From: Vairimorpha necatrix
Lineage: Eukaryota
NCBI GenBank assembly: GCA_036630325.1
Contig: CP142731.1
Span: 806,001 to 870,000 of the forward strand
Direction: 5' to 3'
DNA: 64,000 nt
The notes under the pieces were generated by a model, which worked only from the letters and a program-made list of their open reading frames with translations, had not been told where the DNA came from and made no database searches. Position 1 is the stretch's first letter, and each line of letters begins with the position of its first letter. The position numbers and the translations under genes are program-made. This document shows positions 521 to 50,306 of this stretch, piece by piece.

Positions 521-687
521 TAATTTAGTTATATCAGATTTCGTAGCCGATCAAATATTGGCCAATCATATTCTTACAAATGGACAGGTTTGATTGGCTA
601 CAAAAAGTATTTAAAAACATTTTCAAAAGAAGGATGGAAAATAGAAATAAACTTAATGACACTACATTTGTATAATATAAATAATAC

Positions 688-1028
688 TGTGGTATAATAT
701 CTCATACCACATGTTTATGGTGACCAATAGACGATGAAACGCTAATGTGCTTTGATACACGTCAAGCATCTCTAATTGTTAGTGGACAGTTCTGAAACAC
801 TAATTTCTAATTGGTTACACACAAATATAAATAACGAAATTCATCACTTAAAAAGAATGAGGATGCCTAAGAACAACAACAGCCGCACTCCAGCTCAGGC
901 CCATGACGCCAATAACAATAAACACTATTCAAATACATTTACACCTACCTTGGGAATTCACGGTACACATAACCGTAGCATTATTGAATGCTTTCTTGCC
1001 ACTGGCACAATTCCAGGTAAATACGCCA
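688..1028 (+). repeat. 5' LTR (341 bp)
   Basis: Starts TGTGGTAT, ends TACGCCA; repeated at 3433-3773. Confidence 0.95.
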
Positions 1029-3442
1029 ATTTGAGCTCAAATGGCAATAAAGGTACAAAGTCATTTACAACTGGAGATAAACATCATTACGCGGAATTTA
1101 AAAGAACTGTTGAAGGTACAGACGTACCAATCCAAGACTATATACTTAAGATATTTAATATCAAATCAGATCTCACTACAGCAGGTCTCAAAGAGTTTGA
1201 AACTCTTTCTGAATATAACAAGTGGAATGACACACAAAGCGGTCATATTTACCATAGTCTAATCTATGATTCTACTTATAAGGATAAACTTACTAGGAAC
1301 AGTTACAAGGCACTGAGAAAAGAACTTCTAGACATACTGTATCCAAAGACCCAACACAGGATTCTCTCGCAAAAAATTGACAATATCAGGCAAACTGATC
1401 ATTTTTCCATTAACGAGTATATGGAAACAATTTCTAAAGGATTAGAAGGCTACATTCATGTCAACGATCTTTCAAGAAAGGAAGTGGATAGAAAACAAGA
1501 AGAAATATTTTTCAAAGGTTTGGGAAGATATACCACTATCAAGATTGCCGATCAAAGACTTAAAACGGCTCCATTTCAAGAAATTATTCAATTTTTAATA
1601 GAACTGGAAGAAAGCATATTATCCCAGTCCACAGAGACCAAACAAGGCTTAATAACCCAGACAACGGGTGCGAACAAGACTAAATACGCCTTTACTAATA
1701 AGAAGTGGTGTAAATACCATCACTCGAAGTTTCACAACACTATAGATTGTTCCCTTCATAAAACCTCACAATCAGAAGATGTCAAAAGCATGATTATCAC
1801 TGAACTTAAAGTCGACAATCATGAAGGGATAAAAATTCAAGGAGAATTAAATGGAACTAACCTACAGTTATTTGTTGACACGGGTGCATCTTGCAATTAT
1901 ATTCACGAAAAACTGTTAAAGTCCTTAAAGCTGAACACAATTGAAACTAAACCTCTAACTATGATATTTGGATGTGGTACTAAAGAAACCACTAGTCGAG
2001 CCGTCGAAACTAAAATACGTATTAAGGATAAAGACTATGATATCACATTTTATGTTTTACAGCGTATACCAGAAGATATTATCTTGGGATATGAATTTTT
2101 ATATGCTAACGAAGCAGTAGTAAACTTAAGAAAGAAAATTATTACCTTAGGAAATGGACATACTATCCCATTTATTGGGGTTGAAGTTACATCCGAGGAA
2201 ATTCTTGATGAAATATTAGCTGAAAGCACTTGCTTACCCATACTCATGGAAGATAAAAAACATTATAAGTTACCAGAAGCTACAAAAACAGAGATTAACA
2301 GATGGAAACTGATCATGAATAAATTTAATCATAAGATCTTCCATATCAAAGGAAAGGATAACACAGTAGCAGACACATTATCGCGTTGTCTACTTTTACA
2401 GATCATGCCTCTCAAGATACAATACGACAATGTCGTTAAAACTTCATGCACGTCAAACAACGGCGTATTACTCAGGAACGATAGAGGCCAACTGGTTATC
2501 AGGAATGACAAAATCAAATCTTTCCTAAAAAGCATACATGACATATCAGGTCACCGAGGAGTCACTACACTCTACAACAACATTAAAAAATACATTTACG
2601 TAAAAAACGCCCTACAAAGGATATCTTGGGTAGTAAAAAGTTGTTCTGTATGCAGAAAATTCAAGATAATTAACAATAGTCATCATAATACGGTGAAGAT
2701 GGATTCATCTAGATTATACGAGCGCATATCATCAGATATCTTCGGACCATTCAAGTATCATACTCCTTCCCCGAACTCTGAGGAGAAGATAGGATATATA
2801 CTTACGATATCAGATATATATTCTAGAGAAGTAATGTTAATATTCTTTAAGACGATTAAAACTCAAGAATTAATCGATTATATAGAAGCATGGATTAAAA
2901 CAAGAGACAGGCCTAAGCATTTAATATCGGATAACGGACGACAATACATCTCCGCAGGTTTCAAAGAGTATCTAGCTACTACAGGAATAAATCACATTCT
3001 AATACCGACATACACACCCAAATCAAATGGGATATCCGAACGCTTGAACCAAACTATTGCCTTCACGCTTTCCATAAACAAATTCCGAGACATCTACGAG
3101 ACTGTTAAAGAAGCAGAAAATATATTAAATATCAACTTTAATCGAGGGATTAAAGCCTCGCCTTATCTTATAGCATATGGCAGGGACTTCTACGATTTAG
3201 ACACCAAACAGCAAACAATAACGAAAAACCCAAACGCTGTAGCGTATACTTCTAAGTTCAACGTGGGAGACATTGTCTACAAAAGAAATTTAAAAGCAGG
3301 AAAACTCGATCGGAAATATGGAACAAGACAAATAGTTGAAGAAGTGGGAAGCAAAGGTAAATGGGTTCGCTTAAAAGATGACGAATCATGGACGCATGTC
3401 CGAAACTTGAAATTTTGTTGGAGTTGGCAGTATGTGGTATAA
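857..3442 (+). CDS. Gag-protease-(RNase H tail)-integrase polyprotein, ~861 aa from first ATG
   Basis: Zn knuckle WCKYHHSKFHNTIDC; protease LFVDTGASCNYI; RNase H tail RWKL..HIKGKDNTVADTLSR; integrase HHCC (HDISGH..CSVC) and D,D35E (SSDIFGP, ISDNGRQY, SNGISER); no YxDD. Confidence 0.88.
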   Translation: MRMPKNNNSRTPAQAHDANNNKHYSNTFTPTLGIHGTHNRSIIECFLATGTIPGKYANLSSNGNKGTKSFTTGDKHHYAEFKRTVEGTDVPIQDYILKIFNIKSDLTTAGLKEFETLSEYNKWNDTQSGHIYHSLIYDSTYKDKLTRNSYKALRKELLDILYPKTQHRILSQKIDNIRQTDHFSINEYMETISKGLEGYIHVNDLSRKEVDRKQEEIFFKGLGRYTTIKIADQRLKTAPFQEIIQFLIELEESILSQSTETKQGLITQTTGANKTKYAFTNKKWCKYHHSKFHNTIDCSLHKTSQSEDVKSMIITELKVDNHEGIKIQGELNGTNLQLFVDTGASCNYIHEKLLKSLKLNTIETKPLTMIFGCGTKETTSRAVETKIRIKDKDYDITFYVLQRIPEDIILGYEFLYANEAVVNLRKKIITLGNGHTIPFIGVEVTSEEILDEILAESTCLPILMEDKKHYKLPEATKTEINRWKLIMNKFNHKIFHIKGKDNTVADTLSRCLLLQIMPLKIQYDNVVKTSCTSNNGVLLRNDRGQLVIRNDKIKSFLKSIHDISGHRGVTTLYNNIKKYIYVKNALQRISWVVKSCSVCRKFKIINNSHHNTVKMDSSRLYERISSDIFGPFKYHTPSPNSEEKIGYILTISDIYSREVMLIFFKTIKTQELIDYIEAWIKTRDRPKHLISDNGRQYISAGFKEYLATTGINHILIPTYTPKSNGISERLNQTIAFTLSINKFRDIYETVKEAENILNINFNRGIKASPYLIAYGRDFYDLDTKQQTITKNPNAVAYTSKFNVGDIVYKRNLKAGKLDRKYGTRQIVEEVGSKGKWVRLKDDESWTHVRNLKFCWSWQYVV

Positions 3443-3773
3443 TATCTCATACCACATGTTTATGGTGACCAATAGACGATGAAACGCTAATGTGCTTTGA
3501 TACACGTCAAGCATCTCTAATTGTTAGTGGACAGTTCTGAAACACTAATTTCTAATTGGTTACACACAAATATAAATAACGAAATTCATCACTTAAAAAG
3601 AATGAGGATGCCTAAGAACAACAACAGCCGCACTCCAGCTCAGGCCCATGACGCCAATAACAATAAACACTATTCAAATACATTTACACCTACCTTGGGA
3701 ATTCACGGTACACATAACCGTAGCATTATTGAATGCTTTCTTGCCACTGGCACAATTCCAGGTAAATACGCCA
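3433..3773 (+). repeat. 3' LTR (341 bp)
   Basis: Copy of 688-1028, followed by TSD AATAC. Confidence 0.95.
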
Positions 3774-3881
3774 AATACTTAAATTAATTATAAGCTATTT
3801 ATATAATATAATTTATAAATTATATTAAATTTGTAAAATATAAACAAAATCAAAACAAATTATTATTAAATGAACACTCAT

Positions 3882-23070: not shown

Positions 23071-24486
23071 TAAAAGGGTTAAAAAAAATAAGAGGTTAAA
23101 CAAATGCACATGTATGACACATATGATGTGATTATCATTAAAAATATTTAATTTTTATTTTGAATAAAAATTTAACACACAAAAGCAAAAGTTTTAAATA
23201 AAAAAAGAGGTATTTTTTCCTCTAGAATATGTCAAAATTTAAATAAGAAATATACTTTAGTATTATGATTTGCAATGCAATGTGTATACAAATATAATAT
23301 TTGAGCTGTTTTGTTTATCTCTGTGTCAAATTGTAAATTAGATTAAATCGTTAATTAATAACTGACGCAAAAAAAGAAAAACAAACAAAATCTTAAGTAT
23401 TCATTTACATAAAATATAAGAATTTTATGAAAAAAGTGTTAATATATTTCGTTGAGTTATTATAATTATTGTCGCGCGCCCGGCGCGCGACCGCGCCCAG
23501 TGCGCGACCGGAAGAATTCGTGAAGAAATTTTACATAAACATATTGTATGTTCAATCTAACTTCAGAATTGAGGATTAAAAGTGTATTATTAACAAGGTT
23601 ATATACAAAAAGATCTTATTTTTGTAGTAACACTTTACTAACGCCCACTTACATCATGAACATAAACAAAATACAAGATTTTTTAAATTAAAGGTAGATT
23701 TTTGTCAAATTGGGTTAAGCTTTTTTTAATTTTATAAGCGCATTAAGATTATAACAAAGAGATCTAACGGATAACTCATTAAGCTATTTATTTATATGCA
23801 TATACATAAAAAAATTACAAATTTAAGGGTACATTGTATTCAATTATTTCTTTTCATAATGCTTAATTAGCTCTATTTTTATGGTTTGATTTTTATAGAT
23901 CAGCTTAGAAGATTCTTAGAATTTAATTAAACTTCAATTTATAAGAATTTTTATAAACAATAAAAATAAATTAAAAGAAACATTTATATATAAACTAAAG
24001 TAATTTTTTATTACATTAAAAACTCTTAACACAAGTTTTGATTATCTTGGAAAAATAAATTAAAAAAATAAAAATAAGATGTTGTGCTCAAATATAAAGT
24101 TTTAGAAAAAATACCTAAATTTGAGTTCACAAAAATTCATTTTAGTTAATTAGGTACCCATAGCTGTGTAAAGATTACATTTTAGACGCCCGTTCAATAA
24201 ATAGTCTACGAAGGTCATTTGAAAATTATATTTCTAGTACGTTGGTATTTGCATTTTTACACTTTATTCTTTAAAATAACGCACATCATATATATATTAT
24301 AAAATAAATTATATTTAAAAAAACGGGCTTAGTGATATCTTTTTAAACAGATAACTTTCTTAATTCAAAAACATACAATTTTCATGAATAAAACATTAAA
24401 TGTAGTTTTCAATGTATAAATTATATAAAAAGATCGTAAACAACTAAAATTTATAGTAAAACAAATAGTAAAATTTATCTCAAGGC

Positions 24487-25707
24487 TCATTTATTTAATT
24501 TTTTAACCAGATTCATTGATATAATTTCCTCCTTACCTTCGTATTTTAACCTTAATCGGTTATTCGATAAAATTTCTATTACTTCCCGTGGTTCACTATA
24601 AAAAGAACTCAATTTTAGTTTTTTTGTTTTCGTATTAGTGTCGAAATCTTTTTTTACAACCACTAAATCTCCAATAGAAAAATCGTTGATGGAATTATGA
24701 ACACATTTTCTGTCCAATCGAGCCAAATATTTTTCATTACATACTGCATCACTTCCTGTAATCGTGTTTACAGTTGTTTCATCCTCATCAGTGCAATCAT
24801 CATCATTCTCCCTTAGACATGTATTGTATCCAAGGCTTCCGTACCATAACTTATAGGGAGACTTCTTTGTAGCAGAATGTACAGCGGTATTATAGTCATA
24901 AACAACTGTATTAATGACCGCTAGCCAGTTCTTATTGTTAAAACCTTTTTCGCAAAGATGTTTTTGCAGGTAGCGAGTAAGGGTTTGATTAAACCTCTCG
25001 ACTTGTCCTTGACTCTGGGGATGACGAGGTCTGCCATGAATAAGCATTATTTTATTTTGTTTACAAAATTCAACTAATGTTTCATTTTTAAACTCTTTGC
25101 CGTTGTCGCATTGAAGTATAGCAGGAAAGCCTAACGTTTGAAATTTGTATTCTAACCGTGATACGACTTCAGCGGCGGTTTTAGTTTTCAAAGCAGAGAT
25201 AAAAGCATATTTAGAAAATACATCTATTGCTGTGAGTATCCAACTAAAACCATCATTTTCATCACTATAAGTCCTCATATCAACAAGATCAATAATAAAT
25301 CTTTCAAAGGGTCTTTTAGCGACGATGTGCTTGAACTTTTCTTTTGTTTTAAGAGGTTGTGCTGTCATGCATATATTGCATTCACTGCAAACCTCCCTTA
25401 CAATACACCTAGGTATACTGAAGTATTGTTCCTTACACTTATCATAGAGACGGTTCGCGCCATAATGATGCTGCCGATGAAGTCCTTGGACCTCTATTTT
25501 CATAGCTTGGACCATAGTACTTACAAATACTCTTTTGTGCCAGCCCCCCACATCCTTCAAGAAAAGAATGTTATCCACAAGAATAAAACTTTGGGATTTC
25601 TTCTTTAGCCTATATTTTAAATGTTTGTCACATTCTAGGCTAACCTCATCCCCTTTGAGTATTTGGACAAGCCGATCATACTCAACTTGGTCTTTTACTT
25701 CTTTCAT
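24487..25707 (-). CDS. Integrase-type (rve) DDE transposase
   Basis: HHCC (HRQHH..CNIC), IIDLVDM, LQCDNGKEF, PQSQGQVERFNQTL; uninterrupted. Confidence 0.92.
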   Translation of the reverse strand: MKEVKDQVEYDRLVQILKGDEVSLECDKHLKYRLKKKSQSFILVDNILFLKDVGGWHKRVFVSTMVQAMKIEVQGLHRQHHYGANRLYDKCKEQYFSIPRCIVREVCSECNICMTAQPLKTKEKFKHIVAKRPFERFIIDLVDMRTYSDENDGFSWILTAIDVFSKYAFISALKTKTAAEVVSRLEYKFQTLGFPAILQCDNGKEFKNETLVEFCKQNKIMLIHGRPRHPQSQGQVERFNQTLTRYLQKHLCEKGFNNKNWLAVINTVVYDYNTAVHSATKKSPYKLWYGSLGYNTCLRENDDDCTDEDETTVNTITGSDAVCNEKYLARLDRKCVHNSINDFSIGDLVVVKKDFDTNTKTKKLKLSSFYSEPREVIEILSNNRLRLKYEGKEEIISMNLVKKLNK

Positions 25708-25775
25708 AGAGGGTAAAGAAAAAATTTTTTTTAAAATGATGAATCTGTACTATAATTATTTGCAAAATATTTTAG

Positions 25776-25851
25776 TCAACCAGCTTGGCACAGTGGTTGT
25801 TATGGTCAATTGTTACTTTGAAGGTCGTAGGTTCGAATCCCACGTGTTGAA
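25776..25851 (+). ncRNA. tRNA-like (pseudo-tRNA) sequence with Pol III A and B boxes inside the transposon
   Basis: A box TGGCACAGTGG, B box GGTTCGAATCC, partial acceptor stem TCAAC/GTTGA; anticodon arm poorly paired (TTGTTAC loop, Asn-like). Confidence 0.6.
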
Positions 25852-27084
25852 AATTTATGTAGGGGTCATAAAAAGATAGTTGAATAATCATAAACAGTTA
25901 ACATACAGAATACATAACTTGTATAATTACAAATTTCAAATGTTAAAAATTCTGTTAGGTTAAAAAAATTAGGAAAAAATCCGGTCGCGCACTGGGCGCG
26001 GTCGCTCGTTGGGCGCGCGACAATTATTAATGATAGTTACCTATCTATCTACTTTCAAAATATAAGAGGTTAATTTAATCTTTAAGCTCTTTTTTGTAGG
26101 TTTCAATCTTAATTTTTGTAGGCTTATTTGACTATTTATATACTAAAAATGCACTTAATGAAAAGACTTGATAGTTATTATTGTGCGTACTTCTGGTAGA
26201 AAATTTTCTAATATTTTTTAAAAAATTTTATTCGATAAAACATACTTAAGAAAATTTTCAAAGTCGATTTTTCTAATTTCAACCTCTGTCTATAAAACTG
26301 AAAAAACATAAACACATAAATATTAAAGTCGAAAAAACAAAATGGCAACAAATATAGCTTGAAAGTGTTTTAAAATAATTTTTACCGCTTGATATTAGCA
26401 TAAGGGTATTTTTACATTCCACAAAACCTCTTTCTCTGATTTTTAAATTAGGTTAATTATAGGAGAAAATCAGAACTAAAATGAAAAATGTAGTAAAAAA
26501 TTATTTTTCGATTAGGACATTCTTTAGCTAGTAGCAATATATACGTTCACATTCATGAATATGGTTATATAATAATTAAACATTGACTTCAAGTGATATT
26601 TTTTTGTTTTTAAAAATGATATTGTTTGTATAACTAAGTTAAAGATCAATTGTACTTATTAAAAAACAAATGTCAAAAATCTTTTAGTCCTGAAATTTGA
26701 TCAAGTACGTTGGCTTTTTAAATCCCGACTGTAAAATTTTTTAATGATTTTTAAAATAAGTAAAATCTCTTGGGTATGAAAATCGACTATATTAAGTTTT
26801 ATTGATACAATCTATAAGTCAAAGGTTTATTTTATTAAGTAAAAAATTTTAAAAAGTTATGCTTTTAACTATTTAAAACGTTTACAAATATCACTAAACG
26901 TGAAAATTTTGATGTTTCAAGTTAATCAAACCAAATTCTCAACGACACCTTTTTTTACGATCGGAATTCGATGTTTCCCTTTTTATTTCGCGATTTTTGT
27001 AATTTTTTTACAATTTTGCTAAAAAATTTGCTAACAAAAAAAAGATGAAATGTTATATGGTTTATTAAATTAGTTTCTATTGAT

Positions 27085-38199: not shown

Positions 38200-39770
38200 T
38201 GTTAAAAACAATTGTAAGTTAAGGGTTAAATTTATTAAATCTATATTCTTAACTTTTTTTTTTTTTTTTTTTTTTTTCTTTGCAAGTAAGAGGTAGGGAG
38301 AAACCTTACATAGGGACCAGAGGGATTTGGGTGTGATCCTTTTCCAACTGGTACTGTGAGATTCTTACTCACTAAAACTCCCTCCGTATAACTTGCCGGT
38401 GCAGCAAGCTCCGCCGTATCCATTGGACTTTGGCTCCAGGAGAACACTTTCCATTTATACCTCAAATCGCGTCCAGAGTGACCTCACAGCGGATATACTT
38501 AACGGGCATGGTTATCTATAACCCGAGGAGAGACATCATCGTACTGACTCAAAGGTCCCTACAATCATCTGTATCGCACACACGGCTCCTTACACGACCA
38601 CATCCCCAGCCCGGCATTTTTATTGGACTGCGTTGACCACCAGTCTCCCACTAGTTTCGGCCACCGTGTTACAGAATCATGTAGGATAGGGTCCACGAGA
38701 CCTTCTATTGCCCTACTTCGTCTAGTCTCTTAGTTAGCTCTAGGATCCCACTCTAGAGTGCACCAGCCATGGGCTCCAACTAGGCCGTACCCATTAGATA
38801 CTTTTATGTATCATTAAGTCACCAAAGGGCGATACTGCTTTTTGGCCTTGAGGTGCGTTTCTACACTAGATGCTAATCCCCTTGTGGCTGGACACACACA
38901 AGTTTCATTGAATCAACTTAATGATTACCGTGGACATTTTCATCATCTGAGTTGTTCCAACTGCATCATAGAAAGTAGAAACAATTTGGTGCCCCTGGGA
39001 CTCGAACCCAGCCCATTGGTCAATGAGAACATCCCTTCGACCACTCGGCCAAGGGCACCTCTCTATATTCTTAACATCCCCGCGCTAAATTTAGAATTGG
39101 GCGATGAAATTATCTACATATTTCTACGCCTACTACTTGGCTCTAAAAATAAAAGTGCATTTTTATGTTAACTAACCATGGGCTGCGCTTTACTCCATCG
39201 CGTCTTACAATCCCTTCTAGTACTGGTCTTCGAGGTACTTTCTTTCCCTGTTTTAATACATAAAGTCTATGGGCATGTGATCATTCGTAACCCATGTCTT
39301 CCCAACAATGAAATCGGATTTTTTCCGTCTATCTCATTCTTCGACTATAACACAGTTTCTTTTTGATTTTCTTCTCTTTTTAAATCTCTCTGTATTTTTG
39401 AACACTACTGGTTCAGCTATCTTGCCACGATAGCTTAAATGTGAATAGTGGGATTACCACTACACTCAATCTCGACAACTCTTATGCCAGATCTTATTAC
39501 AGTCAATACTGTTTCTCCATAGCTCTTCATGGCTACTTTACGTCTTCACCAATCCGGGTCCCTCGACTGATGCAAGCCACCACCTTCTCTTCTGTTAGAC
39601 AACCAACCATCCCCATTCTAACCTAGACTGCATTTTTTTTACGTCTCATGCTTCGACGGAACTTACGACCTCTTCTTTTGTTTTTGTTTGAGTTCAATAA
39701 TTTTATTCTCCACCATGTTAAAGACAATTATAAGTTAAGGGTTAAATTTATTAAATCTATATTCTTAACA
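38200..39770 (-). mobile_element. Non-autonomous short-LTR (TRIM-like) retroelement, 55-bp LTRs
   Basis: LTRs 39716-39770 and 38200-38253 (+39076), TG..CA, 2 mismatches; 5-bp TSD GTAAT; PBS TGGTGGAG and PPT GCGCGGGGA on minus strand; decayed interior. Confidence 0.85.
38254..39061 (-). mobile_element. tRNA-derived SINE-like element (~808 bp) inserted in the TRIM 3' LTR
   Basis: tRNA head 39059-38987 (GGTGCCC/GGGCACC acceptor stem, TGGCCGAGTGG, GGTTCGAGTCC); A24 tail at 38254-38277; 14-bp TSD TCTATATTCTTAAC at 38240-38253 and 39062-39075. Confidence 0.9.
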
Positions 39771-43180: not shown

Positions 43181-43263
43181 CTCTCAGTAGCTCAGTGGCA
43201 GAGCGTTCGACTGTAGAATTTGTAGATATCGAATGGTCACAGGTTCGACTCCTGTCTGGGAGA
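43181..43263 (+). tRNA. tRNA-Tyr(GTA) with 11-nt intron (43217-43227)
   Basis: Acceptor CTCTCAG/CTGGGAG, anticodon stem TTCGA/TCGAA, CT-GTA-G, T-loop GGTTCGACTCC, downstream T-run. Confidence 0.93.
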
Positions 43264-46191
43264 TTTTTTATTTACTTTTAGAAATAGATTTTAATTTGAC
43301 AATAAATATAAGTGCTTAACATAATTTGGGATTAATATTATTACTGAATATAACAATAAATATTTTTTTACGTTATTTGAATTTATTTAAACATTGGGGC
43401 TATCTTTCTCAATGATATTACACACCTTTATCTTTTGTAAGGGAAAATTACTAAATTTTTTTATATTTTAAATTTAAAAGAAGTGACACCAAATAAACAG
43501 AATTTGGGATAATAAAAAGAAAACGCCTTACAGTAAATAATTTAAGAAATAAAAATTCCACAATTTAAACAAATCATTGCTATAACCAGATTGACTGATG
43601 CTTTAGGATTTGACACATCATAAGAGGGTACAACCAAAATAATTTCTGTTTATTTTGTTATACAATGTCATACAAGAAAAGTTATTATGTCGTCTAATAG
43701 GTTGTGGCGCATGTTTTATTATTTTAGCGAGTTTTTACGTAAAAAGACTATAAATGTTTTTATTTTAAAGAGGCAGAGTTTTTGTCTGGAGAATGCATGC
43801 ATAAACATTTCCTATAGTGACAACAATTGTAAATAGCATAATATTAAGAAAAATACCACCTTTTTGTCTATAAGAGCGATTTCAGAATCGTTAATATTCT
43901 TTAATACTATCAAAATGTAGATTTATATAAAACACCGAGTTACTAAGCCGGTACTTAAAATACAACCCCTGTCTACTTCCATAACCCCGATTTTCAGATA
44001 TTAATTAAAAATAAAGCTTAATGATTTTTTTTTTTTCTAAAGACGATTACTCTGCAAACAGTCATTACGATTTATGTATTGTTTTTGGATATGTTTGGTA
44101 AACTTTTTAAATATTCAAATCAAATTTGTTTATTAGAGAATTAAAAGAAAAAAATCACATAAAATAAATATGCATAAAGATATGCAATTTTTTATGTAAA
44201 CCTTCAAGTTTTGATGCCAAGAACTTTACATTGTTTTGCAATATATATTAAAATATATAAAAACTTAAGTATATAATCTTGGGCATTTTTAAGGTCGTTA
44301 GGCCATTAATAAGTATTTTTTTTATTACCATTATGAGACCTAGCATAAATAAATCTGGTATTTATGTAAATTTTTACTAGGATCTGAACTACATGTGCTT
44401 TAATTTTTTATGAAATTTAATATAAAAATAACAATAAAATTGTTTAATGTACAAAAGCCTTCTTTTACGATATATTTGGAACATTTTATATAATGCACAT
44501 AACAATTAAATCCTTTAATGTAGTATCTTACAAAAAATATGTGTTATTAAATATCCAAATTTATACATTTTTTCTTGTTCTAGATTTATAACTATTGTTA
44601 TAGATGTTATCAGATATTTTTAATATATTATAGACTATGTAATTTGTATTTAATAAAATATTCAATAATTAACTCTTTAATTTAGTCTTTTTTGCAAGAA
44701 CAAAGAACAAGAAAAATCTAAAATGCACTAGGTTAACATTTTTAAAAAAATAATGATTGTTATTATTTGCTTTATGAGAAATTACATTTATAACACAGTT
44801 TATTTTTTACAATTATCTCCATAATTGAGATATATAAACATCTACGTCATATTTTTCATCGTTATTTATTTTTATAATTTTTGAAGAAATCATTTATCAT
44901 AATTGTTTGAGATTAGTATAAAGCTCTTATAAAGAAAAATATGTAGTAAAATTTGAAATTATGTTAAGATAAAATAAATATTTTTGTCGTATATGTCAGA
45001 AGGCAATTTATTTAAGTTAATTTTTCTAAAAACGTTTTTAGCAATAGAATTTACTATAAAGAGTATAAATATCATGTATCTATATGCCGAGAAGACTATA
45101 TTGAGTATGTACAATGTCAATTTTATATAATATTACGAACAATATCATTTAACAAGCTTAATTTGGTTGGTGGAAAAGTCCGCCAAAATATAAAAGAAAA
45201 TTTGAAAAAAATAGCCTAAAAAAAATGAATGTCGAAACGGACAAACAGCATCAGGAAGAAACACCATAAACTAAAATCACAAATTTAAAATAATATAATA
45301 CTAAATAAATAATTATTTGCCATATAACAAATGTATTAACCCTTCATATACAATTTTTAGACATTAAATTATTATTTGGATTTTTATAAAATTATGTTCA
45401 TCCAATAATTTTTCGATACCCTCTTAATATGGAAAATGAAAGAAGATTACAAGAACAGAAAGAAAGACCTGTTGATATAAAAAGCATAAAAAATAAACAT
45501 ATGAAATTATACAAAGGATACAAATACTATATGAAATACACTGGGGCTTCTTTTATAAAATGGTCTTGTTTTTTAAAAAATTGTAATGGAAGTATACGCA
45601 TGAACATTATAACAAATGAAGTATGTAATTATAAAGATCATAATCATGAGGAATTAAGTAATTCACAAATTAAAATCTTATTTGTAAATGAAGATATAAA
45701 AAGAGATAGCCTCACAAGCAGAAAAACTAAGAATGAAATTGTATGTGCGACAACATCAATGCTTGATGATTCAGAAAGACAGTTACTTCCAAGTATACGT
45801 AACATAAAGAGAAGAATTAGAAATATTCAATATTTAACTCAAAATTTTAGCTATTCTAATAATCATGATATTCCAAATGAGTTACTAATGACACGATCTG
45901 GACTTAAATTTATACAGTATGATAATTATATTAGTACCAAAGAGAGAATAATAGCATGCCGGTCTGATGAAAATTTAAACAACGCCATGAATAAGAAAGT
46001 CTTTGCAGTTGATGGGACATTTTACTCGTCCCCTCTAGCCTTTTTTCAACTTTTTGTAGTATTTTTTGTAGATGAATATACTTACATTCCTTTTGCTTAT
46101 TTTCTAATACCAAATGAAAAATATGAATCGTATGTGGAAGCTTTTAAAATGCTATTTATTTTAGCAAATGTGAGAAAAATGGAAAATATGA

Positions 46192-49100
46192 TGTAGGGTT
46201 TAGAACCCTTAATAAATAAATGGTTAACATGGCGAACACAAGGATGAACAGGGAAACAAGAGAGTCCCGTAGTCAAGAGGCTAGAACATTAGAGAAAGAG
46301 GCAATTAGGATAGATAAGAGACTAAAGTTAATATTGAAAGTTGAGAAAGTTGAGTGGAAAGATGTTATGGATTTGGCATCTGCGAACTTGCAGGATTATA
46401 TTTTTGAAAATTTTTGTGACGGAAGGAGCAGTTGGGAGGAAATTTATAAAGGCTTACAAAAAGGAGCAGAATTTGAGAGAGAGTCAGAAGAAAGACAAGA
46501 AATGATTAAAGAGATTATGGATAAAGTGTTGAAAGAGTTTAGGGAAGAAAGAAAAGAAAATCTTAGGATGTATAGGAAAAGAAGAGAAATCAGAGAAACT
46601 ACAAAATGTTTTATATGTAAGAAAGAAGGGCATTACGCTAGAGAATGTCATGAAAGTGTAGCTGGTAGGGAAAAATATAAAATTAAAAAGGAACATGTTT
46701 TACAGAAAGAACCAATTATCAACAATGAAGGGAAAAGATGTAAAACAGTAAATAAGTTAGAAAATTTAATTGAAAAGTATCCGGAAGTTTTTAAAGAATC
46801 AGAAGAAAAGATAAAATATCTCACAGGAGAGAAGTGTCCAATAAATACTAAGCAAGGTGAAAAGGTTGTGAAAAGAGGGCAGAATGTGCCATACTACCTT
46901 AGGGTGAAATTTGAGGAGTACTTGAATAAGTTGAAAATAGAGGGGTTATAAGACGTTCCAAAAGTGAGTGGAGGAGTCCAATAAGAGCACTTGAAAAACC
47001 AAATGGGGACGTAAGATTGGTAAGCAATTTGATGGCGTTAAACGATTTGGTTGACAAGGACCCGTACTCACTACAGTTAATTAAGGATATTATGAGAGCC
47101 ACACAGGGGTCAAAAGTATTTACGGTTATCGACTTAAAAGAAGGGTTTTATCATATTGAGATTGAGGAGCACCATAAGCACAAAACAGCATTTGAAGTGA
47201 ATGGTCGAGTATACGAATGGAATAGTATGGTTATGGGGTTTAAGAATTCGCCTCATATAATGCAGAGAGTAATGAACAGAGTTTTAGATGAATTCAGAGG
47301 TAAAGGCGTGGAAGTATATATGGATGATATAGTTATTCATGGTAAAGACGTAAGAGTGCATGACGAGTTACTAGAGAGGGTAATTAAAAAGTTTAAAGAG
47401 TGTGGGTTGAGAATAAACCAAACAAAGATACAATACAAAAAAGATGAGGTGATGTTGCTGGGAGTAACAATTAATGGGGAGGTCATGGGACCGAATGAGA
47501 TTAAAAAGCAGGAGGCATTGGAATATAGAAAACCTGAGAATGTTAGAGAGTTAAGAAGATTTTTAGGACTAACTGGTTGGTTTAGAGACTTTATTCCCAA
47601 CTATGCGTATAGAACAGTAAGGCTTACTGAGGCTTTAAAGAAAGATGTTAAGTGGAATTGGACGGAGGATATGGAAAGAGCCTTTGAGGATATGAAGCAA
47701 GGCTTGAGAGATATGAAAAAGTTGAAGATTCCGGACGGAAAAAAGCTATTTAGAGTAAGAACTGATGCGTGTGATACGGGGATCGGAGCAATTCTATTAC
47801 AAGAAAATAAAGAGGGTGAGTGGATTCCGATACAATGGGCATCGAAAATGTTGACTCCTACCGAGCGAAGATATACGATAAGTGAGAAGGAGATGTTGGC
47901 GGTGTTTTTTGGAATAAAGAAGTTTGAAAGTGATTTGAGAGGAAGGAAATTTCATTTGATGACGGATCATAAAGCATTAGCAGAGATCAGAAATAAGCCA
48001 TACTTCAATAATAACAGAATAAACAGATGGGTAGAACAGATACAAGAGTTTGACTTTACAATAGAGTATGTGAAAGGGGAGTTGATGACAGATGCAGATG
48101 CGTTAAGTAGGCAGTATGATCAGGTAGAAGTTTCGGATGAACAAAAAGAAAAGGACAACAAGAGAAAAGAAGTGATCGAAAAACAAATTTTGGGAAAAAA
48201 GCAGAAACATATTAAAGAAAAGGACGGTAAACAGTATTGGGAATTTTCCACAGGTGAGGTGAAAGAGATATTGAGCCTAGATAGTAGAGAACATGAAATA
48301 ACAAGAGTACATGAGGAGTTAAACCATAGAGGTGTCAAAGGCACTTATTATAACATTAAACAAAGATGGTATTGGCCTGGTATGAAAGATCATATTAATA
48401 ATGTAATTAAGAATTGTGAAATATGTGGGATTAACAATAGGAAAAACACAGGAGGATGTGATTTCGTAGTAACTAGAAAGAAATTGGAGAAAGTGGCGTT
48501 GGATTTAATGGACATAGGTGGAGAGAATAGGTATGTGTTACTGGGTATTGATTACTTTACTAGAAGGTTGTGGGGTTCGAATTTGAGATGTAAAGAGAGT
48601 AGTGAAGTTATAGAGGTATTACAAAAGTGGATAAGGGAAGATGGATTTCCAGAGGAATATGTGACAGACAACGGAAAAGAGTTTGTAAGTAATAGATTTA
48701 AAGAATGGTGTAGTATTAATGATATTAAACATAGGAAAGTGGGCTTAGAAGCTCATAGGAGTAATGGTAGAATCGAGAGATGCATCAGAACTATAAGAGA
48801 GACATTGATAAAGCAAAATGATGGGAATATTTCTGAAAAGATAGAAAGAGCAATCAAAGGATATAATAATACACTACATACAGCAATAAAATGTACGCCG
48901 ATGGAAGCGTGGAGAGATCAAACTGCTGAAGTTATAATTGAAAATGATGAAAATGGAAAATATGCTGGTCGGTTCAAGAGAAGACACAGAGAGACATTTA
49001 CAGTAGGCCAAGAGGTAAGAATCGCTAGAAGAGAAAATTTAGGTACACGTGCGAAAACAGACAAGGGAAGATTCACGGGTCGCGGAAGGATCGTAGCTAT

Positions 49101-49265
49101 AAGTGAAAATGATTCATATATTGTGAGACTACTGGATGGTAAAATTGTTAAAAAGAGGCATTATGATTTGAAAGAGATAAGGAAGAGTTGTTTAGAAGAT
49201 GGAGAGACTACCCGTCTGGAGGGGGGATGTAGGGTTTAGAACCCTTAATAAATAAATGGTTAACA
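46192..49265 (+). mobile_element. Ty3/gypsy LTR retrotransposon with identical 38-bp LTRs
   Basis: TGTAGGGTTTAGAACCCTTAATAAATAAATGGTTAACA at 46192-46229 and 49228-49265; TSD TATGA; PBS TGGCGAACAC; PPT GGAGGGGGGA. Confidence 0.95.
46229..49239 (+). CDS. Gag-RT-RNase H-integrase polyprotein, one frameshift near 46935, no protease
   Basis: CFICKKEGHYAREC; GVIRRSKSEWRSP; YMDD; TDACDTGIGAIL; HHCC; TDNGKEF; SNGRIER. Confidence 0.85.
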
Positions 49266-50306
49266 TATGATAATAAATGGTGAGTTGACCATACATAAGG
49301 CATTGCATAGTGTATATCCAGGCACCAGAATAAGACTTTGTGTCTTTCATTATTCACAGGCGGATTTTAAAAAATTTAAATCATTGGGATTTTCTAAATT
49401 GTACAAGAATGATAAGATTTTTAGATTTTATATCAAATGTTTGCTTTGTTCAATATTCATTATTGAAGAAAAAATATATATTACATTTAAATATTTAGTT
49501 AGGTTAATATGTCGCGATTATAGTGGACATGCAATTAAAAAATTTCTTAACTATTATATAACGAATTGGTTAAATAAAGACTTTTTCCATTATAACGATA
49601 TGAAAGAAAGAATAGAATATTATATACCATTTACAAATAATGGAGCGGAAGGTTTTAATTCTTCATTAAAAAAAGAATTGAGATCACCACATCCAAGTTT
49701 AACTGAGCTTTTAATGTGTTTGAGAAATTGTGATTTTTTAAATGAAATATACAAACATAATATTAAAAGCAAGAAAAACAATTCTATAACAAAGACCAGA
49801 AATTCAAAAATAATAATAAAAATAGAAGATTTAAAAGACAATGATTGTTTGGAAGTTTTAAAAGAAATTACATCTCTATATAACTTTAAAGATGATATTT
49901 TACAATAAATTTGATCATTTTGATTTCTCCTTTTAAGGGCTATTTTTTTTCAAATTTTCTTTTATAATTTGGCGGACTTTTCCCCTTACGGCCGAGAAGA
50001 CTATATTAAGTATGTATAATGTCAATTTTATATATTATTACGAACAATATCATTTAACAAGCTTAATTTATATTATAATCGTTGATGATGTTACTGCAAA
50101 ACAAAACAAAAGCTTAACTAATGCATCTAAGTAACTTCTTCATAATTTAAAAATATTAAATAACATATTTTGACTCGTTATACAAATCGTCCCGAAATAT
50201 TCAACGATTTATTTATTTAATTTCTTGCAATTATAATATTAATTTGGATACATATTTATCATAAAGATTTTACTTTATTATGAAATAAATTGAAAAAAAC
50301 AAAATT

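Follow-up and report, generated by a model that had tools for sequence, protein, structure and literature searches.

The 64,000 nucleotides of Vairimorpha necatrix contig CP142731.1 analyzed here (assembly GCA_036630325.1, positions 806,001 to 870,000 of the forward strand; this whole stretch is referred to as the window, and element positions are counted from its first letter) contain, at 46192-49265, a retroelement of 3074 bp whose long terminal repeats (LTRs) are 38 bp long. With a probability of roughly 75%, it is a recent, nearly intact copy of an ultra-compact LTR retrotransposon of the Ty3/gypsy type that belongs to a Nosema/Vairimorpha-like microsporidian, and this copy has been inserted in a MULE-like transposase gene. 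That the LTRs are genuinely 38 bp long is supported by an empty site, by other insertion sites, and by relatives with LTRs of 39-58 bp.

The 38-bp repeat (TGTAGGGTTTAGAACCCTTAATAAATAAATGGTTAACA, TG..CA) is present exactly twice, on the plus strand at 46192-46229 (5' LTR) and, in identical form, at 49228-49265 (3' LTR), and two matches to it were obtained in none of 100 shuffles of the window. The element is flanked by a perfect target-site duplication, TATGA, at 46187-46191 on the left and 49266-49270 on the right. Directly 3' of the 5' LTR, with zero spacer, stands TGGCGAACAC, which starts with TGG; the primer-binding-like site TGGCGAACACAAGG (46230-46243, plus strand) abuts this LTR and its codons read (M)ANTR. 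The polypurine tract GGAGGGGGGA (49218-49227, plus strand) abuts the 3' LTR, again without a spacer, and is also translated as codons. The same purine/3'-LTR junction occurs in the related elements L003, L004, L033, and L057, in which the purine runs differ in length. GC content and purine skew climb sharply across 46001-50000 compared with the flanks. All of these landmarks (identical repeats, duplication, and adjoining primer-binding and polypurine sites) had been pointed out in an earlier sequence-only reading of the window, which considered the boundaries unambiguous; every one of them was recovered at its place, and the boundaries are now independently backed by the empty-site joint and the foreign flanks described below, which meet base 1 of the LTR. 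The anatomy of the element is confirmed and practically beyond doubt. Five features had escaped the sequence-only reading, namely the frame break near 46932, the lack of a protease, the in-frame ATG within the repeat (46220), the stop codon within the 3' repeat (49237-49239), and the MULE-like nature of the target frame. Further copies of the 38-mer, including solo LTRs, were absent from the 64-kb window at up to three mismatches.

Contigs of four public runs (X1-X4; Logan) were compared with the element region; X3 is a bat gut metagenome and X4 a freshwater metagenome, and both, like X2, come from other studies. Contig depth was not taken as copy number. In one X2 contig, 46185 is connected to 49265 with 3079 bases left out, and seven letters at the joint are ambiguous and fit either side. 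As the skipped length equals that of the 3074-bp element plus one TATGA, this is an exact empty-site joint. A contig from X1 matches the left flank as far as 46192, beyond which its letters agree, apart from one difference, with 49272 onward; it is an unoccupied paralogue of the MULE-like target. In addition, unrelated sequence reaches 46191, followed by the first base of the LTR, in three X2 contigs and one X3 contig, which indicates other insertion sites of the element. Two X1 contigs tiling the element differ from the window by six letters and one gap over 3045 bases. Taken together, the contigs show that the element is mobile now or was so recently, and that it occupies multiple sites.

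The target is a MULE-like transposase frame on the plus strand. Its 5' half (45429-46191, within an open reading frame (ORF) at 45429-46196) and its 3' half (49271-49908, within the ORF 49267-49908) have weak MULE matches at profile positions 2-51 (E 0.0036) and 69-98 (E 0.0077), respectively, and when the element is taken out together with one TATGA, the frame resumes at 49271. The element is sense-oriented within this frame, whose own start carries a CCC motif. Two further kinds of contigs were seen in the same runs. One X2 contig agrees with the element over the LTR end and 13 bases beyond it, after which 255 bases diverge (split at 46242-46243); it seems to represent a sister subfamily in which this LTR end and the primer-binding site are unchanged. 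Several X1 and X2 contigs omit internal parts of the element within 46826-49103 (e.g., 47908 to 48734, or 48758 to 49102/49103) and may stem either from copies with internal deletions or from related subfamilies.

The coding content falls into two frames on the plus strand. Frame 1 (46220-46951, 243 residues) encodes a helical gag, a CCHC zinc knuckle (zf-CCHC at residues 129-143 by profile search), and the first residues of the reverse transcriptase (RT) region, its stop being caused by a frame break. Frame 2 (46930-49239) encodes RT (RVT_1, residues 23-181, E 1.7e-30), RNase H (RT_RNaseH, residues 271-374, E 2e-30), and an integrase made of an H2C2 finger (Integrase_H2C2, residues 453-504, E 2.2e-14) and a DDE core (rve, residues 529-602, E 1.8e-10). 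The order of RT, RNase H, and integrase is that of the Ty3/gypsy type. Both aspartates of the YMDD motif (D132 and D133) are invariant in alignment A1, and so are D525, D580, and E616 of frame 2, which are read as the catalytic D, D, and E of the integrase. Reading starts at an ATG at LTR base 29 (46220), i.e., within the 5' LTR, includes a second ATG formed in frame with gag by the last LTR base (A) and the TG of the primer-binding site, passes through this site and the purine tract, and stops at a TAG (49237-49239) that occupies bases 10-12 of the 3' LTR. Between the LTR ATG and the stop in the 3' LTR lie 3020 of the 3074 bases (98%). The junction ATG had already been proposed by the sequence-only reading and is real and family-wide, yet the ATG nine bases upstream, inside the LTR, suits host grammar better.

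Frames 1 and 2 overlap at 46930-46951 with an offset of one base. Compared with the public contigs, the window copy has one base fewer at 46932-46933: an extra G behind 46932 is present in X1 (depth 60.6/60.6), X2 (88/88), and X4 (2/4.1), and when it is added the residues agree with those of relatives. The close relatives all have a single gag-pol frame of 985-1052 residues; a polyprotein of about 1000 residues is estimated to have a mass of roughly 115 kDa. A programmed frameshift at 46930-46951 was considered and rejected, since no X XXY YYZ heptamer was seen, the relatives are single-frame, and three runs carry the extra base. The break is therefore read either as the loss of one base, in this copy or in the sub-lineage to which it belongs, or as a sequencing error.

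No retropepsin or other protease family was found in the frames of the window element at E <=0.01, and none of the retropepsin families at E <=1 in any of six full-length relatives (6/6). The sole peptidase match among these six, to a Pao-peptidase model and below threshold (E 0.068), falls in the RNase H region of P0003. D[ST]G was absent before RT in 31 of 33 relatives; in the window element, the stretch between knuckle and RT region is only about 60 residues long and contains no D[ST]G. A structural model of the first 234 residues, built with a 34-row alignment, had a predicted local distance difference test (pLDDT) score of 79.6; its first 125 residues are helical with pLDDT >90, and helices at 11-35, 43-49, 52-62, and 69-124 are followed by the knuckle. 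This gag model had no match in the PDB by Foldseek at E <=0.001, and with VIA wide the best Z of 6.2 belonged to generic helical chains, the Arc C-lobe (Z 5.2-5.5) being tied with unrelated helical chains.

The pol frame has relatives among microsporidian proteins: identity to Nosema granulosis reaches 81-86% over parts, followed by V. necatrix, V. apis, Pseudoloma, Enteropsectra, and Nematocida, and the search also yields many frames of about 1000 residues without a species name. Among viral contigs there was one distant match, which was not used. The relatives showed LTRs of 38-58 bp, those of 75 and at least 124 bp occurring in more distant, protease-bearing elements; no long-LTR copies of the kind that would make the present locus an assembly artefact were seen. 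The most complete case is L003 (51% protein identity, degenerate), with TG..CA LTRs of 39 bp at 540-578 and 3664-3702 of its own contig that differ by one mismatch, a TTATA duplication, and both the TGG and the purine junctions. L033 (71%) preserves the 3' end only, where a purine tract is followed by a 38-base string that aligns with the window LTR and then by unrelated DNA; searched for in two bins, this LTR was found only in its own contig. L036 (5') and L057 (3') represent one family (51%) with repeats of 47 and 46 bases, whose ends are set by the primer-binding site, the purine tract, and the flanks. L040 (43%) has perfect 58-bp LTRs and weak partial protease matches, L050 (36%) has 75-bp LTRs and a protease, and L048 (37%) has LTRs of at least 124 bp, a protease, and a capsid-like gag match. 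Short LTRs as a family trait are thus supported by these sequences.

Three other relatives were discarded as sources of LTR pairs, L001 and L002 for being 5'-truncated or chimeric copies cut at the contig end and L004 for being 5'-truncated. The excess of contig over frame length in Logan-derived relatives (27-100 bases) was likewise rejected as a bound on LTR length, since an internal de Bruijn contig looks alike at any LTR length. Junction ATGs in frame are present in L040, L050, and L048, which are contigs of one metagenome bin labelled as a bacterium. Bins labelled Clostridium and Turicibacter hold many eukaryotic retroelement contigs, with 51 and 14 matches, respectively.

The junctions can also be read in the protein termini of the relatives. 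An N-terminal MANT is common to P0003, P0004, P0005, P0009, and P0010; [HNDY]M[AGVED] occurs within the first 14 residues of 17 of 33 relatives, and 10 more start with M[AGVED], a pattern expected from translation of the ..NAC-A|TG-G.. LTR/primer-binding-site junction. C-termini that read the GGGGA|TGT purine/LTR junction in one of three frames were found in 11 of 33. These pattern counts, which are not proofs, suggest that family members in general have a frame extending across the two junctions.

Within the LTR, CCC occupies bases 15-17 (46206-46208), AATAAA bases 20-25 and 24-29 (46211-46216 and 46215-46220), and ATG bases 29-31, so that CCC lies 11 bases upstream of the in-frame ATG. The overlapping AATAAA signals, which begin at repeat bases 20 and 24, and the likeness of the CCC to a start-proximal signal of the host had both been suggested from sequence alone, and both hold: in 9 of the 13 window frames of >=250 residues, CCC lies <=15 bases before the ATG (2-11 bases before it, usually behind an A/T run), compared with 4.3% of random 15-base windows. 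A microsporidian CCC motif, 5' untranslated regions shorter than 7 nt, and AAUAAA near stop codons are described in the available text of PMC2803860 and PMC2685015. As a by-product, CCC before ATG can be used as a start-codon check when the genome is annotated. The LTRs of six families (36-71% protein identity) retain a single CCC run and one or more AATAAA; this holds for 10 of the 11 LTR copies that were read, the degenerate 5' copy of L036 having CCG instead. The distance from CCC to the LTR end is 21, 20, 16, 19, and 18 bases in the five families with LTRs <=58 bp and 31 in the 75-bp family, and AACCCTTAA is common to the window element, L003, and L040. A hairpin of AGGGTT and AACCCT, to which attention had also been drawn, is indeed present (-5.9 kcal/mol); as a functional feature it was dismissed, since an equally good fold was reached by 78 of 200 shuffles (z -0.24) and it is not kept in L003 and L040.

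These features make it likely, if unproven, that the 38-bp LTR is a compressed U3-R-U5. In the mechanism proposed, host RNA polymerase II would start just behind the CCC (LTR bases 15-17), as at host genes, translation would begin at one of two ATGs, that of LTR base 29 or that of the junction, and the frame would stop at bases 10-12 of the 3' LTR, while the AATAAA signals (LTR bases 20-29) would direct RNA cleavage near or just past the 3' LTR end. R and U5 together would then measure at most about 16-21 bases, and minus-strand transfer would have to manage with these. Synthesis would be primed by a tRNA whose 3' end is complementary to TGGCGAACAC, and the short strong-stop DNA would move to the 3' repeat. 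The integrase would act on the TG..CA ends and produce 5-bp duplications, and the polyprotein may function uncleaved or be cut by a host protease.

In a rival reading, the boundaries would be right but the 38-mer promoterless, the element RNA arising by read-through from upstream host or transposon promoters (here that of the same-strand MULE-like gene) and its CCC and AATAAA being nothing but AT-rich microsporidian sequence. The orientation of the element within a frame whose own start has CCC would suit such an origin, and so would the widespread transcription overrun and multi-gene transcripts of microsporidia described in the available text of PMC2803860. However, RNA that starts upstream of the LTR would give strong-stop DNA with a non-matching tail, and a clean U3 would not be regenerated; moreover, five families (43-71% identity) retain a CCC run at 16-21 bases from their LTR end, although CCC occurs in only 4.3% of random 15-base windows, and other copies lie in unrelated flanks. 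Read-through is therefore considered improbable. Slightly less probable still is that the protease-less family is non-autonomous and depends on other LTR elements in its genome to provide a protease in trans, for instance one at 688-3773 of the window, which has matches to Asp_protease_2 (1.1e-11) and rve and none to RVT. The missing retropepsin signal in the window copy and in all six relatives examined would be explained in this way, but dozens of relatives (44-71% identity, many sources) have kept their frames of about 1000 residues open although these lack a protease, which speaks for selection over a long time on such a design, and the integrases of the two window elements are just 24% identical, with nothing linking them. 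That the short repeats are an assembly artefact or truncated longer LTRs is hardly credible, given that the empty-site joint has the exact length of element plus duplication, foreign flanks meet LTR base 1 in two further runs, primer-binding site and polypurine tract abut the 38-mer, and relatives from other assemblies have LTRs of 38-58 bp.

Several points weigh against an intact, self-sufficient element with a complete 38-bp LTR. The start site, the poly(A) site, and R are predictions, and in L003 and L040 AATAAA stands upstream of CCC, so that the layout of the signals is not uniform. The window copy itself, its frame being broken, is probably not autonomous, and, with the protease missing, the whole family may not be autonomous at all. 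X1 is possibly the source sample of the window and hence not independent. Target duplications are absent in L040 and L050, possibly due to metagenome assemblers joining the flanks of different copies, and L003 is the sole complete independent example with a duplication. With regard to priming, the primer-binding site has at most five bases complementary to the two tRNA genes of the window, the only ones compared; a complement of it within the LTR, as Tf1-like self-priming would involve, was not seen when judged by eye only. Finally, no text on LTR lengths in microsporidia was found in the literature searched, and the supplements of PMC4202319, Xu et al. 2006, and Repbase, which lay outside the search, may hold some.

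A broader interpretation, which we offer tentatively and at somewhat less than even odds, is that the clade represents a natural lower limit of the LTR retroelement. Its members would be autonomous, protease-free elements of about 3.05-3.1 kb in which a 38-39-bp LTR is a complete U3-R-U5, a single 38-mer accommodates the overlapping promoter, start, stop, poly(A) signal, and integrase ends, and the primer-binding site and polypurine tract are coding. The series of LTRs of at least 124, 75, 58, 47, 39, and 38 bp, along with the loss of the protease and of the capsid-like gag, might then reflect a stepwise miniaturization paralleling the reduction of the host genome.

The canonical elements Ty3 of Saccharomyces and Tf1 of Schizosaccharomyces are about 5 kb long and have LTRs of about 340-360 bp and a protease, and Tf1 is self-primed. 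The window element shares with them TG..CA LTRs, a 5-bp duplication, abutting primer-binding and polypurine sites, and the order of RT, RNase H, and integrase (as well as a single frame with Tf1), whereas it is 3.07 kb long, has 38-bp LTRs, and has no detectable protease. The LTRs of Bombyx mag are about 77 bp, and TRIM/SMART elements, which have small LTRs, are non-autonomous; to our knowledge, the 77 bp or so is the shortest LTR of an autonomous element, and 38 bp is about half of that. Compared with L050 and L048, the window element is alike in RT, RNase H, and integrase (36-37% identity), in the in-frame junction ATG, and in a frame that starts in the 5' LTR; the two relatives differ in their protease, in the lack of a CCHC knuckle by pattern, in their LTRs of 75 and at least 124 bp, and in their frames of 1154-1227 residues, and L048 also in its capsid-like gag match. 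The 194-bp LTRs of tomato TARE1 are termed very short in the available text of PMC3701649, where short LTRs are linked to few solo LTRs; the window LTR is five times shorter, and the lack of solo copies in the window fits this link.

Among microsporidian elements, Parisot et al. (2014; PMC4202319) described microsporidia-specific groups of Ty3/gypsy elements with a single polyprotein, a description repeated in PMC13174016. As far as the available text of these papers goes, the window element resembles those groups in its microsporidian host, its RT-RNase H-integrase order, and, at the level of its family, a gag-pol in one frame, while the 38-bp LTRs, the frame that overlaps both LTRs, the primer-binding site, and the polypurine tract, and the absence of a detectable protease are features of the window element; that text of PMC4202319 mentions neither LTR lengths nor a protease. 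Nearly all Nbr polyproteins of Nosema bombycis have five domains including a protease according to the accessible part of PMC2474625. Both are Ty3/gypsy elements of a Nosema-clade microsporidian that encode a polyprotein, in contrast to which the window family has four recognizable parts and no protease.

Several other features of the window deserve mention. A conventional LTR element lies within 683-3778, with identical 341-bp LTRs at 688-1028 and 3433-3773 and an AATAC duplication, which indicates that the host does not force short LTRs. Its frame of 888 residues (776-3442) starts in the 5' LTR and has aspartic protease and integrase matches, no RT or RNase H match was found in it, and it looks like a non-autonomous deletion derivative. 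An rve-type integrase frame on the minus strand (24487-25707) is enclosed by GC-rich palindromic repeats at 23471-23508 and 25984-26021, and the whole of 23471-26021 possibly represents a DNA transposon bounded by terminal repeats. The two tRNA genes are located at 38987-39059 (minus strand) and 43181-43263 (plus strand); one has a CAT anticodon, and the other, which contains an intron-like insert, is called Leu(TAG) by ARAGORN and reads like a GTA anticodon plus an intron.

Common LTR finders have a default minimum LTR length of about 100 bp. If this holds, they miss the whole family, and its share of the genome is filed as orphan pol genes; names resembling such filing were met in the databases, including 'endonuclease', 'reverse transcriptase', 'krab-a domain-containing protein', and labels of bacterial metagenome-assembled genomes. 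LTRs so short should almost never recombine to solo LTRs, by which the usual route of element loss would be gone, and they make dating by LTR divergence useless for this family. If the 38-mer works as U3-R-U5, it would bound the minimal sequence for a promoter, a strand-transfer repeat, and two integrase ends, as well as the shortness of R, and would bear on whether a Ty3/gypsy element is able to replicate without a protease of its own. The family is also a compact natural test bed for the transcription signals of microsporidia.

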